A stretch of 64,000 nucleotides of DNA from Octopus vulgaris (Eukaryota): assembly GCA_951406725.2 (NCBI GenBank), contig OX597822.1:8060001-8124000 (forward strand), in the 5' to 3' direction. The position numbers and the translations under genes were made by a program. A model generated the notes under the pieces. The model was not told where the DNA came from, searched no databases, and saw only the letters and a list, made by a program, of their open reading frames with translations. Shown here piece after piece: positions 1,650 to 47,539 of this stretch; position 1 is the first letter of the stretch, and each line of letters starts with the position of its first letter.

Positions 1650-1773
1650 CAATGTACAGTAGATTCTTAAAATGAACATTATGTAATACATTTCAATGTA
1701 GATATTTTTCTGTTTTAAAACTCTGGATTGGTTTATGTATATAACTTCCGCATAAGAAATTACGTTGATATAA

Positions 1774-2158
1774 TCTCTCTCTATATAAACGGCAGTTTGT
1801 CTGTGTGTGTTTCTGTGTGTCTGTTTGGTTGTACCCTCACCCTGACCACGGCTTTCAACCGATTCTGATGAAACTTGACACACACATAGCCCAATGTCAT
1901 AATTCAAAACTAACGCAGCGAAAATTTTGAAAAGTTCCCCCAGTTCTGAAAATAATCGATAAATTCGACATGGGGTCGAGAATCAGAAACACAAACCAGA
2001 GACTGTCTAGGGGACGCAACTCGACCTTTTTTAACTCTCAAAAAAATTTACCATCATATTTTTTCCATTTTTTTTGTTATTTTTTGCCTATAACTCTCTA
2101 AAAATACTTTATAGTTATTTCCCTTACAAACCTGAGCAACGCCTGGCGATACTGCTTG
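1774..2158 (+). mobile_element. Non-autonomous Helitron-type element
   Basis: A|TC 5' end at 1773/1774. Sub-terminal hairpin CCTGAGCAACGCCTGG followed by CTTG|T (CTAG-like). The 3' ~110 bp is shared with 43333-43737. Confidence 0.7.
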
Positions 2159-2386
2159 TCTATGTATAAAAGAAACTATATATGTATAACGGAAACTGAG
2201 TGTAGAGGCATAAAGTCTGTACAGTTTGCATTTGAATGATGCACCGTGTCACACATGAAATGCAAACTAGCAGTTAAAGGAGGTAGTATTATATTGGATA
2301 TGTACCCACCAGCAAAATAGATAATTTGATGAGATAAAATATAGAACATATTTTTCAATTAGTTTACAACTGTTGTATTTGAATGA

Positions 2387-2722
2387 AGGCGCGTGGCTCA
2401 GCGGTTAGAGTGTCGAGCTTACGATCGTGAGGTTGTGAGCTGGAATCCCGGACCGGGCTGCGTGTTGTGTTCTTGAGCAAGACACTTTATTTCACGTTGC
2501 TCCGGTTCACTCAGCTGTAGAAATGAGTTGCAATGTCGCAGGTGCCAAGCTGTATCGACCCCTTTGCCTTTCCCTTGGATAACACTGGTGACGTGGAGAG
2601 GGGAGGCCGGTATGCATGGGCGACTGCTGGTCTTCCATAAAACAACCTTGCCTAGACTTGTGCCTCAGAGGGTAACTTTCTAGGTGCAAGCCCATGGTCA
2701 GTGTCTGACCGAAGGGGGTAAC
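2387..2722 (+). mobile_element. tRNA-derived SINE with CORE-like central domain
   Basis: A-box TGGCTCAGCGG and degenerate B-box GCTGGAATCC, followed by TGTGTTCTTGAGCAAGACACTT (CORE-like). Confidence 0.75.
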
Positions 2723-3130
2723 ACACATTTGAATGAATGTAAATTTCCTAAGCCTTCTTACACACGAACCTGAAAGAGAAATGTTAACCCTACCAGTTAA
2801 AATTTTGCATAGATGCATTTCCTCTCAAGGCAAAAAAACCCAAAAAACCGATGTAGCCTCTCTTGAACTGGTGGGATACACATTACACATTGGAGGCTAT
2901 AACTCTTTTATTCATGGACAGGAAAAATATGTTAACTTCCCAATCAATAACGATTCCTCTGAAATTTCACGTAGTATTTTAAAGTTTCAATTGTTCCATG
3001 CCATTGTGAAGATACAACACACAGTGCGCCAAACTAGCTACTCGTCATAAATATCACTGTTAATGCAATTTGCAGTAACTATCTACAAGAAAGTTTTCTT
3101 TTTACGAACACTACAAATTGAACACAAGAA

Positions 3131-3498
3131 CGAGTAGAAACGTTAGCATGCCGGGCGAAATGCGTAGCCGTATTTCGTCTGCCGTTACGTTGTGAGTTCA
3201 AATTCCGCCGAGGCCAACTTTGCCTTTCATCCATTCGGGGTCGATAAATTAAGAACAAGTTACGCACTGGGGTCGATGTAATCGACATAATACCTATGTC
3301 TGTCCTTGTTTGTCCCCCTTATGTTTAGCCCCTTATGGGTAATAAAGAAATAGGTATTTCGTCTGTCTTTACGTTCTGAGTTAAAATTCCGCCATGGTCG
3401 AGTTTGCCTTTCAAATTAAGTACCAGTTGTGTACTGCAGTTGATCTAAACGATAGGTCCGATCCCCTAAAATTTCGGGCCTTGTGTCTAGAATAGAAA
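3131..3498 (+). mobile_element. SINE family A (tRNA-like head, internal unit duplicated)
   Basis: GAAACGTTAGCA..GCCGGGCGAAATGC...GAGTTCAAATTCCGCCGAGG..GCCTTTCATCC.TTCGGGGTCGATAAA. At least 8 copies are in the window. Confidence 0.85.
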
Positions 3499-3972
3499 CG
3501 TATATGTATACCAGCATCAAAATGGACAGATTCCTAGTTGAAATATGCGCAAACACTATTTGCATCAAATTCTTCTAAATTGGATAAATAAGTTATGTCT
3601 AGTTTGGCGATCAGTTGATCCCAGAGTTTCGTTCTTTCGTCTAAATTAAGGAAACTGAACATTTATGTAAGAGGCGGTTAACGTGTCAGGGAAATATTCT
3701 ATATACTTTACTAGGAACAGCTGCTATTCTCCGTGGTGGGAGCTGGCGAGAGAAAGATAGGGAGAGGGGGAAATGAGAGGGGAGATAAAAACTGGCTTTC
3801 ACAAACTAGTAACCATTTCTTCCCCAGTTGTTTTTGATAGATTCCAGCTATCACCGAATTACACTTTGTAGATAGACAGTCATATGTGAATAGGTTTTAA
3901 CACACACACACACACATATATATATATATGTATATATATAGATATAGACATATATACACATACGCATATATA

Positions 3973-4013
<41 letters not shown>

Positions 4014-4020
4014 ATAATAA

Positions 4021-4335
4021 AAATATTAGGGAATAAATCCAAATTTACAGGGAAAAATCAGATTTAGGATTAAATCCAATTTTATAGTAAAATAGTATAT
4101 AATATAATTCGAGACAAAACCAGTATTTTGCAAAACAAACAAGGAAAGACTTAATCAATACATAAAAATTTTTAATATAAAGAAATAAACCGCCACTACA
4201 ATCGTTTCATGTCTTCAATGACATTCGTCAGGTGGATTTTCGATCTCCTAATCTGTTTTAATTTATGAAGTGGCGGTTTATTTCTTTATATTAAATTTTT
4301 TTATGTATTGATTAAGTCTTTCCTTGTTTGTTTTG
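4021..4335. mobile_element. Short fold-back element between (TA)n tracts, with ~66-bp inverted arms 4131-4197 and 4269-4335
   Basis: CAAAACAAACAAGGAAAGACTTAATCAATACATAAAA...AAACCGCCACT is reverse-complemented at 4269-4335. A hammerhead lies at the apex. Confidence 0.8.
4193..4235 (-). ncRNA. Minimal type I hammerhead ribozyme (canonical core)
   Basis: Minus strand reads CCAC CUGACGA AUGUC-auugaa-GACAU GAAA CGAUUG UA|GUGG. Stem I has 4 bp, stem II has 5 bp, helix III is near-palindromic, and the cleavage triplet is GUA. Confidence 0.8.
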
Positions 4336-4621: not shown

Positions 4622-5985
4622 ATACCATTGTTCCATTATTGGTGATATCAACAAAGAAAATACTCCAATACAAAGATTTAAACGTGAGCTACTGTTAATT
4701 TCGTGCATCTGAATGAAAATACAATGTTCTGAGAAGCCTGTGTAGCATGTTGCATATTTTCAGACAATCATTCAAACTTGAAATCATGTTTCTATTAAAT
4801 GATCTTCATGTGTGATTGTGTTCCTGATTGTGTGAGCGCGTGTGTGTACAACCACACAGAGCGCCATTCGGTAAAATACAGATACCAGTAACTTGCTTCA
4901 TTCAAACAAAAGAGACTACTTACTATGCTAGTGACATGGCTGAGATGTCGGAAAATATTTTGTGTGCATACCTGTATGTAAACGTATATTACCTACGAAC
5001 TTATATATAGTTTTGCTTTTAATCTATCTTTTTTTTTTTCCTTCAGGACGACTGAGTATATAGTAGAAAAAGTAAACGTGTTAATAGCTGAATGCAAACG
5101 TGATAAATTTCTCACCTCAATTATTTTGGCGTCTGTTCAATATCTACATGCTACACATGAAATGAAATAAAGAAATTATATTACACGACACAGTATTATC
5201 TCGAATTAACAGCCTGGTGATCCTATAAATTTTGAATGGTATTCATATAGTTATATTGAAAATCTGATTACCTGCATTCTGTTTATTCCCTGCTCAGTTT
5301 CCCCATTTCACCATGTATTGTTAAAATGAATTAGGTGATTTAATATGCTACTCTATTTCAAAGGAAGATTAATATCGCATAGCGAAAACACCTTTCGATA
5401 ATATTTCAAGTGTTCAGGTGGTGGCATTACAGAAAGCAAAGTGTTCCGAGCTTTATTGTTTTATTTTTATTAAATATCGTGCATCGCTAAAATAAATGCC
5501 ATCTTTATGTGCCAGTTTAGGTAAATGCTTCTACACATTCCCCTTATATATCAGTAGTCTTGTAATAGGTAATACTCAACATAGATTTAATTCTTGCAGA
5601 GGGTATATGTCATTCACTTACGAAATATTAAAGCAACACTAGCTATATAGCTACATTATGATACTAAAGTTATCGTCTAGAATGTAATATTAAAGGACAT
5701 AAATAAGTTGAACTTTCCCTATATACATACAACTTTAACAGTTTTACGCACGACTTGGTGTAATTACTGTCGAAATTTCTTGCTCTCAAACTTTATCGTC
5801 TTTAAAAAAGGTTGCTTAGATAGCTTGATTCTGAGTGGATTACATTGGGGGGAAATGAAAAATAGAATAATGGGCTTATTTACAGAGTATTTAATCAACC
5901 GTCGACTCAGTCAATCTACATTGAAATAATAACCATAACACAAGATATTTTTATCCAATCAAAACAAACAGTTAATACTCAGTAT

Positions 5986-11181: not shown

Positions 11182-11973
11182 TTGGAACTCTCAAAACGCT
11201 ATGTTCGAGCAATTTTGCTATTCAACTTCAAAAAAGGACGTAAAGCAAATGCAGCTGCTCGCGATATCAACGAATCGTTTGGTGTGGAAATGACTAGTGA
11301 GTGGTCTGCTCGAAAATGGCTTAAAGAATTTCACAGTGGAGATCTGAGCCTTGAATATCGTGAGAGTAATGATCCCCCATCTGTCATCGATCCATTTCTC
11401 GATCGTATGGTAACACGATGAAAAGTGGAATTTGTACAATAGTATCGTTCTACGCAGTGGTTGGACCAAAATGAAGAGCAGAAAAGTTTCCTTAAAGCGA
11501 ACTCTTCAAAAGGAAGGTTATGATGACTGTTCGGTGTTGTTCTGCTGGATTCATCCGTAATAACTTCTTAAAACCTGGAAAAACCATTACTGCAGAAACA
11601 TACTGGCATGAAATTGCCAAAATGAACGAAAAACTGCTCCGTCCCAGACTGGTCAACAGAAGATGGCCAATCATTCTTCATGAAAATGCCCGAGAACACG
11701 TTTCACTTATGACGCTATAGATGTTGGAGATCTTGGCTACGAAGTTCTTCCCCAGTTAGCTTATTTTCCAGACTTTTCTCCTAGCGACTATCACTTTTTC
11801 AAGCTCCTTCATGGTTTCTTGCGAGAAGAGTTGAAAAATGAAACTGATGCTAGAATTGTATCCAAAGAAGTCATCAGCTCCAGAACTCCAGATTTTTATG
11901 TTACTGGAATAAACAAACTTGTAACACGCTGGTAAAAATGTGTTGATTTTAATGGTACTTACTTTAATGAATA
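11182..11973 (+). pseudogene. mariner (DD34D) transposase remnant, internally deleted and frameshifted
   Basis: N-terminal HTH (RAILLFNFKKGRKANAAARDINESFG...ARKWLKEFHSGDLSLE), PFLDRMVT.DEKW, LHENAREH, YFPDFSPSDYHFF and the end GINKLVTRW*KCVDFNGTYF. Confidence 0.9.
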
Positions 11974-19217: not shown

Positions 19218-20493
19218 CATTTTGAGAGCCTTGGGAGAGGGTTCGAACACTGATGTCATCTACCTTGATTTCAGCAAGGCCTTTGACAGGGTTGATCATT
19301 AAATCCCTTTGAGAAAGTTGTCCAATATTGGTGTCACTGGAAAGCTGCTGCAGTGGATCAAGTGCTTCCTGCCTAACAGAGCCCAGCATGTTGTAGTCGA
19401 AGGAGTCAAATCCAGCCCAGCCAAAGTCAGTAGTGGTGTCCCACAACGCACTGCGTTGGGCCCACTTCTCTTCATCATCTACATTAATGACATCACTGAC
19501 ATCATCAAACACAGTAACATCAGAATCTTCGCTGATGATTCCAAGCTCCAGAAGGTCATCAATGGCATGGGTGACCGGATAAGCCTTCAGTCAGACCTAC
19601 TGGGTGTTGTCCAATGGGCGGAAAAGAACAACATGTTGCTAAACGAAGACAAATTCGAAATGATCCACTTTGGAAGGGAGGATGCTCTGAAACTCCCATA
19701 CTCTCTTCCTTCTGGTGAAATTCTCATGGCGTCTAGCAACATCAGATACTTGGGAGTAACTGTGGACAACAACATAAGCTGGGCTACACATATGAGCAGC
19801 AAAGTTGACATGGCCCGTAGAGTGCATTCCTGGATTCTCAGAACCACCCAGTCGAGAGATTCCCACACCATTATCATTCTCTTCTCCACTTTTGCCCGAT
19901 CCCACCTTGAATACTGCTGTCCACTGTGGTCTCCCTACACGAAACAAAATATTATGAGAATTGAAGCTCCCCAAATGTCAATCACAAAAAAGATAGATGG
20001 CATATTAGACCTCGACTACTGGAGTAGACTAGAAAAGCTGAAACTGTATTCACTAGAACGACGCCGTGAACGCTACATTATCTGTATGATGTGGAAAATA
20101 TTCCATCAGCACTGTCCGAATGATGTTGGCATTATCTTTAAAATACATCCAAGGCTTGGACCACGTGCCATCCGTCCACAACAAAAATCTAAATCGCATC
20201 ACATAACAACAATACGGCACAATTATTTCACCTCAATTGGACCCGCTCTCTTCAACATTACACCAGGACACGTCAAAACAGAAACTGACCACACAAAATT
20301 CAAGAAGTCTTTGGACAAATTCCTTCAAACAGTCCCGGACAAACCACCCACACCCGGATATGTCTCCGCAAACAATAACTCTCTGCTCGAGTGACCTTGG
20401 TGCCCAAATCCTGAATTGAAAAACTTCGCCAGGTTCTAACTATTAAGTTAGACATGGCATGGGCCGATACTGGCCAAAACCTTTCTAAGTTAT
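19216..20493 (+). mobile_element. 5'-truncated CR1-group LINE (RT domain to 3' end) between (TA)n tracts
   Basis: DVIYLDFSKAFDRVDH* is in frame with ORF 19309-20394, which has GVPQR(G)TALGPLLF.IYIND, IFADDSKL, YLGV, HLEYCCPLWSP and LYSLERRRER. It ends in a short 3' UTR with a TCTAAGTTAT tandem tail. Confidence 0.92.
19309..20394 (+). pseudogene. Reverse transcriptase, C-terminal part of a LINE ORF2 (361 aa open)
   Basis: RT motifs as above. A stop codon lies just upstream and there is no endonuclease domain. Confidence 0.9.
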
Positions 20494-21485: not shown

Positions 21486-21775
21486 AAACAATTGTAGCGT
21501 GGAAGGTGTTTATAAGCCATATAAGAAACACACAAAAACCGTTAGATTCACTTCAACATTTAAATTTATTTTGTAAAAATATTTTCGTCGCTTTGAGACC
21601 GCGATCTGTTGACTGACAAAATTCAGTGAGATGCAGCACGGAATTTTGTCAGTGAACAGGTCGCGGTCTCGAAATGACGAAAATATTTTGACAAAATAAA
21701 TTTAAATGTTGAAGTGAATCTAAAGGTTTTTGTGTGTTTTTTAAATGGTTTATAAACACCGTCCACGCTACAATT

Positions 21776-21779
<4 letters not shown>
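21486..21779. mobile_element. Fold-back element with ~140-bp inverted arms between (TA)n tracts
   Basis: AAACAATTGTAGCGTGGAAGGTGTTTATAAGCCAT...CTGACAAAATTC is mirrored by GAATTTTGTCAG...ATGGTTTATAAACACCGTCCACGCTACAATTGTTT. A single arm of the same family lies at 54152-54270. Confidence 0.9.
21643..21697 (+). ncRNA. Type I hammerhead candidate with compensatory G3-C8 core
   Basis: AUUUUGUCA GUGAACA G GUCGC-loop-AUGAC GAAA AUAU UU|UGACAAAAU. Stem I is a perfect 9 bp and helix III is the palindrome AAUAUU. The opposite arm has GCGAC, which perfects stem II. Confidence 0.65.
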
Positions 21780-21851
<72 letters not shown>

Positions 21852-21873
21852 GAATGGAGTCGAACGATGATTT

Positions 21874-21988
21874 AACAAAATTCCTTTATTCTCGACATAT
21901 GTTTCGAAGACTGCATATTCCTAATTCCGAAGGAATAAAGGTCGCATTATGCCGCCTTCTCATCAGGAAAGAAAAGGAATTTATGTCA
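21874..21988 (-). ncRNA. Type I hammerhead ribozyme, canonical core with GUC cleavage site
   Basis: Minus strand reads AUUCCUUUUCUUUC CUGAUGA GAAGGCGGCAUA...UAUGCAGUCUUC GAAA CAUAUG UC|GAGAAUAAAGGAAU. Stem I is long with an internal loop, stem II is ~12 bp, and helix III is the palindrome ACAUAUGU. Predicted cut is between 21894 and 21893. Confidence 0.9.
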
Positions 21989-22199
21989 GCATCATGACGA
22001 ACAAAAACTTTTAGATGACTGCCCACACGGAGTCCATAGTGATAATGAGTGTTTCTTTAAAATATTCCGTTATAAGCAGTGACATCAAAATTGGTTGAAT
22101 GGAGAAGATTCTAAAAAGTTCAAGAGTTCAAAAAAGGTTGGGAGGGGAGAGTTCCAAGAATAGGAAGGTGACGACTTGCACCCTGTCACCTTCAAGCAT

Positions 22200-24361: not shown

Positions 24362-24978
24362 CTTTTCTACTCTAGGGCACAAGGCCCCATTCTTGGGGGG
24401 GGGGGGGGACCTAACGATTAGATCGACCCCAGTACACAACTGGTACTTAATTTATCGACCCCGATAGGATGAAAGGAAAAATCGACCTCGGTTGAATTTG
24501 AATTCAGAACGTAAAGGCAAACGAAATACCGCAAAGTATTTCGCCCGGCAGCTGACGTTTCTTATTTCTTTACTGCCCACTAGCGGCTACTCACAGAGGT
24601 AACAAACAAGGAGAGACAAACGGATTAAGTCGATTATATCGACCCCAGTGCGTAACTTGTACTTATGTAATCGACCCCGAAAGGATGAAAGGCAAAGTCG
24701 ACCCCGGAAGAATTTGAACTCTGAACGTAAATAAAGGCAGACGAAATACCTATCTATTTACTACCCAAAATGGGGCTAAACACAGAGAGGACAAGCAAGG
24801 GCAGACACACGGATTAAGTCGATTATATCGACCCCAATGCGTAACTGGTACTTATTTAATTGACCCCGAAAGGATGAAAGGCAAAGTCGACCCCGGCAGA
24901 ATTTGAACTCAGAACGTAAATAAAGACAGACGAAATACCTATTTCTTTACTATCTACAAGGGGCTAAACACAGAGAGG
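24362..24978 (-). mobile_element. SINE family A, tandem array of ~3.5 internal units of ~175 bp
   Basis: ATCGACCCC..AGGATGAAAGG.AAA.TCGACC..GAATTTGAACTC.GAACGTAA is repeated three times. Confidence 0.85.
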
Positions 24979-25149
24979 AACACCTTACATGAAAATACCA
25001 ATGGATTAAGAACAAACACTACTCGGCCAAGAAATCATTTGAACAACATCAGCAACAACAACAATTACTACAACCATTCCGCCCCTTCTAGCAACACTGG
25101 TGACAATATTCCTCACATCGACCAACAGAAATAAACAGATTAAATACGT

Positions 25150-34846: not shown

Positions 34847-35234
34847 TAGAAAAAAGCACCTTTTATCAATTCAAACTGAATAATTAAATTACACCATCTA
34901 GAAAATTACATATAATAGAAAAGTTAAAATTAAAATAACAATTAAAAAGTAAAGATTATGTAAATTACAAAAATAATATAATATATATAATAGGTAGAAA
35001 AACGACACGTGTTTCGCTGCTATATTTAAGAAATGATTATAGTAGTAAAGAAATCACTTGCATATAAATATAGTCGCTCATCAGGTTAAAAATATAATAG
35101 AACAATTAATTAATAAATATACTTTAATATATTTTATATATATTATATTGTGTGGAATTTGATTTAGTATTTCTAAATTGAATCCTTTTTTCCTTGTAAG
35201 TTTGGATTTTATTCCCTCAAATAATAAATAAAAA

Positions 35235-46261: not shown

Positions 46262-46672
46262 GGCGGCGAGCTGGCAGAAACGTTAGCACGCCGGGCGAAA
46301 TGCTTAGCGGTGTTTCGTCTACGTTACGTTGTGAGTTCAAATTCCGCCGAGGTCGGCTTTGCCTTTCATCCTTTCGGGGTCGATAAATTAAGTACCAGTT
46401 ACGCACTGGGATGGATGTAATCGGCTTAATACCTATGTCTGTCCTTGTTTGTCCCCTCTGTGTTTAGCCCCTTGTGGGTAGTAAAGAAATAGGTATTTCG
46501 TCTGCCGTTACGTTCTGAGTTCAAATTCCGCCGAGGTCGACTTTGCCTTTCATCCTTTCGGGGTCGATAAATTAAGTACCAGTTACGCACCGGGGTCGAT
46601 GTAATCGACTTAATACCTATGTCTGTCCTTGTTTGTCCCCTCTGTGTTTAGCCTTTTGTGGGTAGTAAAAAA
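46262..46672 (+). mobile_element. SINE family A, full head with duplicated internal unit
   Basis: GGCGGCGAGCTGGCAGAAACGTTAGC followed by two copies of the ~180-bp unit. Confidence 0.9.
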
Positions 46673-47539
46673 ATATATACACACACATGTACGTTACTTT
46701 GATAGCGTCCTGAATGCGTTCCTCTTCTCCCACCCCTTACTTCCATCTCTCTTTCGCTAGCGGTTATTTTTTGTTCTTCTTTTTCTTTCCCCCCTCCCTA
46801 CGTTTAAGAAATACTTCCCATCTCTCTTGTCTGTTATAATTAGTATATGTATACACCAAGAGATTTTTATGCGCGTCCGTATATGTATATGTGTGTATGT
46901 GTATTTGAGCGTATATTTATGTCTTACATATATGCCTGTTTATATATGTAGCTATATGCATGCATCTGTGTATTTTGATGTATATATGTATACTATAGAT
47001 GGTCTAGTATGCGTATAAACTGTGGTTAAATATTTATGTAATGCAGCGTGAACATTTTATTTTTAATGTATTGACTTATATTTCGTATATAATTATTTAC
47101 AATACGTATTTTGAATCTTCTCTTCGATTTAAGGTTTTCTTCCATTTTATAATAGGATGAATGTACATTGAATCCATTTATTTTGTTCATTGCATGTTTA
47201 AGACTGTTAATTGAAATGACCAATGAAACAAATCCATTTTTGAAGGTGTATCCTTTAAATAGTGTTGATTATATCGTTATTTCTGTTCCATTTTAACAAA
47301 ACTGTCCGACGAACGGGAACGCGATCTTTATTATTGTCACACTGCCTTCTGCGTAGAGTGACAATAATAAAGTTGTTACTATCGTGGTTACGTGATTGAA
47401 GTTTGAGCCCGATGGATCTATTTTTCTTTCTGGCTTTACAGTGTAAGCCTAGCCGCTCCACTAGCAATGTGCAACATTGAAGAACGAAGAGCAGTGATCC
47501 AGTCAGCAATGCAAGATAGAGTGCTTTGGTGACGAAAAA

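Follow-up and report, generated by a model that had tools for sequence, protein, structure and literature searches.

The hammerhead and its surroundings

The minus strand of the window, by which we mean the whole 64,000-nucleotide stretch of Octopus vulgaris DNA at positions 8060001-8124000 of contig OX597822.1, carries a complete type I hammerhead at 21874-21988, with its core in type I order. The catalytic core CUGAUGA lies at 21966-21960, GAAA at 21905-21902 and the GUC triplet at 21896-21894, all on the minus strand, confirming the claim of the sequence-only reading that all core nucleotides are present. Helix III is the 8-bp palindrome ACAUAUGU (A-C-AUAU-G-U; 21902-21895, minus strand), self-complementary as had been described; in a monomer it forms 2 bp closing an AUAU tetraloop, in a dimer 8 bp. 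Following hammerhead convention, we take the cut to fall between 21894 and 21893, and counting from the GUC triplet returned this same, previously predicted position.

Both long stems were also recovered on the minus strand. The 5' strand of stem I (21967-21982) pairs with its 3' strand (21893-21878) at 14 of 16 positions, leaving a 2x2 internal loop (C.A, U.U), and the MFE structure lengthens the stem by 5 + 6 bp, in line with the earlier account of an extendable stem of about 14 bp. The extension and the tail (21848-21877) run to the first of the family's 3' end points, some 50 nt beyond the cut. In stem II, 21948-21959 pairs with 21906-21917 at 11 of 12 positions, G.A being the single mismatch. 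Its 30-nt loop (21918-21947) is branched and contains a 5-bp sub-hairpin (AUUCC/GGAAU, 21936-21932/21928-21924), matching the stem of about 12 bp with a hairpin in its loop proposed before.

A strict type I descriptor (stem I of at least 4 and stem II of at least 6) matched once in the window and never in any of 40 dinucleotide shuffles. The folding z-score was -2.85 for 21874-21988, with -2.40 for the plus strand of the same span, and -3.4 for 21862-21996. As the descriptor found nothing in the shuffles and folding z is negative, the hammerhead is not a chance match. Rfam gave no hammerhead match for the motif at the gathering threshold or at E<=10.

The hammerhead lies within a non-coding 325-bp remnant (22172 to 21848, minus strand) which we assign to a Penelope-like element as its solo, 5'-truncated 3' end (3' UTR/pseudo-LTR). 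The remnant is 96.3% identical over 325 bp to its nearest genomic copy and, counting the TA tract, shares 94% identity over 394 bp with the 3' UTR of L033, a near-full copy elsewhere. At the 5' junction stands an inverted 21-nt piece of the same element (22173-22193, plus strand), a fold-back with 9 nt duplicated that is identical to L033 4671-4691 in opposite orientation. The remnant ends at a (TA)34 tract (21779-21847), likely the insertion target; other copies end in such tracts. No tandem array was found at the locus, and tblastn with the related full-length proteins P0001 and P0002 found no match in the window. Judged by its homology, the hammerhead is thus a Penelope-like element's ribozyme from the 3' UTR/pseudo-LTR, present here as a solo truncated copy, a relationship that the sequence-only reading had missed.

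No host exon was identified with Pfam among the 104 open frames of at least 75 aa in the window. Short exons would escape this frame scan, so the remnant may lie in an intron. Only two frames passed Pfam cut-offs: a mariner transposase HTH fragment at 11182-11418 (+; HTH_48, E 4e-12) and a LINE-type RT fragment at 19303-20391 (+; RVT_1, E 3e-10). Tandem copies of 184-189 bp at 24569-24979 and 46309-46675 presumably represent an octopus SINE. A MITE-like fold-back element (21486-21779), with 143-nt arms that are 92% complementary, lies between two (TA)n tracts. It adjoins the Penelope remnant and is repeated elsewhere.

The parent Penelope-like element

The 136-nt motif gave 2,454 first-look candidates in the 2.8-Gb genome, the best 40 of which were 93-97% identical, many as close inverted pairs. 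An 18-nt tail pattern had 4,703 exact matches genome-wide and none in the control. The full element is about 3.4 kb long and consists of a 5' UTR, an ORF, about 570 nt of 3' UTR, a sense-strand hammerhead, about 50 nt and (TA)n. Within the ORF an RT-like region is followed by an Asn-rich linker and a GIY-YIG-like C-terminal end. L033 is a decayed near-full copy that carries an inverted arm on its 5' side and is flanked at either end by TA tracts. Its ORF (1688-4318, from ATG 1688 to stop 4318) is split into several frames, and its ribozyme core lies at 4889 on the coding strand, in the 3' UTR. The frames are collinear with two unnamed full-length proteins, P0001 (711 aa) and P0002 (806 aa), found among 7,999 candidates scored (E 2e-65 and 1e-42, respectively).

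The element's protein contains the motifs DKT, LMGS, YRDD, IYQC..FYIG (GIY-YIG-like), CGVC and CMH, and CCHH is absent. Pfam GIY-YIG scored E 5.5e-4 and 20.6 bits, under the 22.6 cut-off; the Pfam RT family gave no match in the element fragments, nor did a PDB sequence search with an RT fragment. Motifs, layout and the unnamed homologues together point to a Penelope-like identity. Three features are those of EN+ Penelope-like elements: a single ORF with an RT and then a C-terminal GIY-YIG, a pLTR or partial tandem arrangement with inverted 5'-truncated arms and an optional tail, and a hammerhead in the pLTR on the sense strand.

Much of this architecture is shared with the Hydra clade as characterised by Craig et al. 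2021 (PMC8557442): a C-terminal GIY-YIG without CCHH, DKT, CxxC and CxH near the EN end, (TA)n insertion, a sense-strand hammerhead near the 3' end with a short near-palindromic helix III, and inverted 5'-truncated arms. In the octopus family 11 of 100 arms also had TA on their 5' flank, and the RWK position reads RWL in L033, the sole copy read there. The element differs from the clade in length (about 3.4 kb as against <3 kb) and in the linker that joins RT to EN. Where the clade has CxCX5C (PMC8557442), the three open-frame copies (L029/L033, L040 and L043) all have a 157-aa Asn-rich stretch (42-46 Asn) with no Cys, and CxCxnC upstream of EN was absent in any frame from all ten distinct copies, which were reached via two related queries. 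We therefore call the family Hydra-like and not a member of Hydra. P0002 carries both the Asn-rich insert and the Cys motif and may show an intermediate state. At another locus (L008), part of a different Penelope-like ORF (1758-2612) that includes a Cys linker lies beside a copy of the hammerhead family.

The ribozyme itself also sets the family apart. The octopus member Hydra-1_Obim has a different, short-stemmed ribozyme (PMC8557442), and this difference in sequence makes ours another family. The Hydra rows of File S2 in that paper list stem II of 3-7 bp and loops of 3-10 nt, as against 12 bp and a branched 30-nt loop here. With published hammerheads derived from Penelope-like elements (PLEs) the octopus ribozyme shares type I topology, a palindromic helix III, the G10.1-C11.1 pair, solo copies that number in the thousands and stem from truncated elements, and opposite-strand pairs 100-700 bp apart. 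It departs from them in its longer stems I and II, in a 2-bp helix III with a tetraloop and in lacking an unpaired base between positions 9 and 10.1. Our search, which covered published papers, turned up neither this hammerhead family nor a Hydra linker devoid of Cys. Hammerheads at Penelope ends have already been published, one in an octopus Hydra element among them, and what is new is a further family with modest peculiarities.

Conservation and ends of the genomic copies

To describe the copies we used a sample that was unselected as to 5' length and comprised the 100 tail matches that came first in the list, all from the first 67 Mb of contig C1. An alignment of 53 rows combined the window copy with the 52 arms that were long enough. 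Column variation rose from 1.4% in the core through 4.7% in inner stem I and 7.1% in loop III to 8.4% in outer stem I, 11.6% in stem II and 14.1% in loop II. The core was intact in 46 of 53 rows (45 of 52 without the window copy). By these comparisons the catalytic core is the best-conserved part of the element's 3' end. The exact palindrome ACAUAUGU occurred in 38 of 53 rows; another seven carried the non-palindromic ACAUGUGU, with a self-duplex energy of -6.0 as against -7.0, and these rows weaken the case for strict selection for dimers.

Stem cells paired in 85.7% of cases, compared with 40-49% in slid controls. Two-sided pair changes numbered 6 among these 53 close copies as against 6.5 in shuffles, so support for the stems comes from pairing and not from compensation. 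The pair that creates the 2x2 loop in stem I formed in 11 of 53 aligned copies, and 41 show a 3x3 loop. The window copy departs from most relatives at 21980, 21973 and 21943-21942, the last being near-private to it. These differences fall in the stem I loop and in loop II, where tertiary contacts would lie. A hairpin running from the cut site to the tail was considered as an RT-start signal or a ribozyme off-switch. It was unsupported (z -0.08), and its central pair was broken in 16 of 53 rows; the tail is invariant through the way the sample was selected.

We also looked for traces of cleavage in the ends of the copies. The cut site was spanned by 85 of the 100 arms and the whole core was reached by 59. 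Every 10 nt contained about 1-10 arm starts, and these did not peak at the cut; the ends of divergent subfamilies are perhaps underestimated in this distribution. Four arms started in +1..+10 and four in -10..-1; the only one at +1 lay inside a (GA)n repeat. At the 3' side, 54 arms stopped no more than 30 nt from the tail anchor, some 50 nt beyond the cut, 38 ended 140-172 nt further on, after entering the 5' UTR, and 8 elsewhere, giving two end points about 155 nt apart. Copies are thus 5'-truncated at scattered points, often with an inverted partner arm, and stop at either 3' end point. In one group of loci (L106-L190) at least three 3'-end subfamilies coexist, with an optional 3' extension of about 155 nt as against the usual 30-40 nt.

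Targeted patterns yielded several candidates for ends at the cut, none of which stood. All 25 matches for copies ending there carried on past it as point-mutated copies (G-to-A at CpG in 20), and all seven matches for copies starting there, from six loci, fell at junctions of inversions or rearrangements. In 32 short palindromic pairs, counted by eye with a pattern biased to short arms, 5 arms started at +1, 6 ambiguously at -2 and about 42 at +3..+10. We rejected this cluster as a cleavage footprint because the 100 unselected arms show no peak. The genomic copies show no footprint of cleavage.

The two 3' end points are reminiscent of Poseidon PAc of Anolis, which has two RT start sites and an optional tail (Frangieh et al. 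2024, PMC11167929). In both elements there are two discrete end points downstream of the ribozyme and no ends at the cleavage site, as seen in RNA reads there and in genomic copies here. According to that study, the end points are 30-40 nt apart in Anolis (about 155 here) and the ribozyme lies over the start codon, in contrast to the 3' UTR position in octopus.

A few inverted pairs were joined at short palindromes: 2 of 32 exactly via the helix III palindrome, and 1 of 32 via a TCGA palindrome centred on the cut site. L098, G000:C18:5202300 and L101 are among such junction loci. These joins suggest fold-back priming at short palindromes.

Predicted cleavage and role of the ribozyme

The sequence-only reading had proposed that the motif would cut any minus-strand transcript crossing it, with palindromic helix III allowing dimers. 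ViennaRNA, an energy model without tertiary contacts, gave the catalytic fold of the monomer a probability of about 0.002. The monomer kept stem II and outer stem I and mispaired the core, with pair probabilities of 0.77-0.96 for stem II, 0.22 for inner stem I and at most 0.01 for helix III. When cofolded without constraints, two copies formed a double hammerhead in which stems I are swapped and helix III has 8 bp, at -61.6 kcal/mol compared with 2 x -27.5 (-55.0) kcal/mol for two monomers. Dimer folding as proposed was thus reproduced. No tertiary partner of loop II was identified, and the one Watson-Crick alternative tried, a 9-bp switch in which loop II CCUUUAUUC would pair with the 3' strand of stem I, was disfavoured and rejected (P 5e-8).

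Cutting of any minus-strand transcript was not upheld. In the model the monomer rarely adopts the catalytic fold, no second copy of the family was found within the 64-kb window, no host exon was found nearby, and published PLE hammerheads are weak: in PMC4209133 they show no monomer cleavage and low dimer cleavage. From the folding model the hammerhead would likely cut RNA well when two copies pair up and poorly alone. Some cleavage in vitro as a dimer is somewhat more likely than not; as a monomer it is doubtful, and it is quite unlikely that a host transcript at this locus is cut to a meaningful extent.

Contigs of three presumed-RNA runs cover the repeat, though such contigs show neither RNA ends nor strand. 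At 21942, 21943, 21973 and 21980 between 80 and 100% of their depth shows the letters of other copies, and they barely reach the remnant's unique flank, which a DNA-like run largely misses too. Two presumed-RNA runs covered 30 and 28 of 30 bins of the parent element's coding region.

Very probably, then, the motif is a type I hammerhead in a Penelope-like 3' end, here a truncated solo copy that would likely cut poorly without a second copy or protein; it is not a lone active host ribozyme. The element would nick (TA)n DNA, and uncut RNA would be reverse-transcribed from a start site downstream of the ribozyme, which would therefore be copied whole. In tandem pLTR-ORF-pLTR transcripts two ribozymes may pair via ACAUAUGU; as such a dimer, or aided by protein, the ribozyme would trim the precursor RNA. 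PMC11167929 describes a PLE hammerhead that needs the element's protein and is dispensable for insertion, with an RT that takes unprocessed RNA. Differing by about 4-6% from its relatives, the window copy would have been dead on arrival from such an insertion and is probably carried along as a neutral passenger.

A ribozyme competent as a monomer would have wider consequences. Its long stems would let it cut any sense transcript, and the roughly 2,400 intact copies, an extrapolation (4,703 x 59/100 with the whole core x 45/52 intact), would be cleavage sites in host pre-mRNAs. The core is intact, the 14-bp stem I has an internal loop at the usual distance, and stem II is confidently paired (0.77-0.96). 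Helix III of 2 bp with a tetraloop is a form linked to efficiently cleaving invertebrate retrozyme hammerheads (PMC7229834), which makes monomer activity possible. The same model however leaves inner stem I at 0.22 and helix III at no more than 0.01, the branched 30-nt loop II has no tertiary partner identified and its 9-bp pairing with stem I is negligible, the copies bear no cleavage footprint, and no exon was found near the locus. We consider this reading unlikely. It is equally unlikely that the Hydra-like family has lost a Cys linker proposed to steer (TA)n insertion, yet has set thousands of copies there, and bears an extended, branched-stem-II hammerhead of which about 2,400 copies cut host transcripts alone or paired. 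A non-autonomous retrozyme replicating as a small circular RNA would explain short, non-coding sequences in thousands of copies, and retrozymes have been proposed to derive from PLE pLTRs (bioRxiv 10.64898/2026.07.22.740005). Metazoan non-LTR retrozymes also share the type I hammerhead and 2-bp helix III; they are however tandem 170-400-nt units (PMC7229834), as against part of a coding element here. The locus holds no tandem array of such units, the copies lack a fixed 5' end and grade continuously into the coding element, and 0 of 25 candidates end, and 1 of 100 arms starts, at the cut. The retrozyme reading is highly improbable and already largely refuted.

Under the favoured reading of a Penelope-like 3' end, the unselected genomic sample indicates that insertion uses uncut RNA, in agreement with the Anolis result in vitro, yet the core is the best-conserved part. 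The family also targets (TA)n apparently without the proposed Cys linker and is thereby a natural control. It is useful for two open questions, the role of PLE hammerheads and what targets PLEs to (TA)n. If the long-stem ribozyme were active alone, its copies, in the thousands, would be of consequence for the processing of host RNA.

Hammerhead scans found three motifs in the window, of which that at 21874-21988 has the longest stems. The sequence-only reading had named it the window's best candidate for a still-active self-cleaving RNA. The motif at about 35005-35087 (minus strand, core from 35084) has CUGAUGA ... GAAA, the perfect palindrome ACACGUGU and GUC, with a long AU-rich stem II and a stem I of about 3 bp followed by AT-rich sequence. 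The motif at 4193-4235 (minus strand, core from 4231) has CUGACGA, a 5-bp stem II, ACGAUUGU and GUA. It belongs to another repeat family with 997 candidates; about 200 bp around it are partly self-inverted and gave no tblastn match with P0001/P0002. Its core and helix III were identical in all ten copies retrieved.
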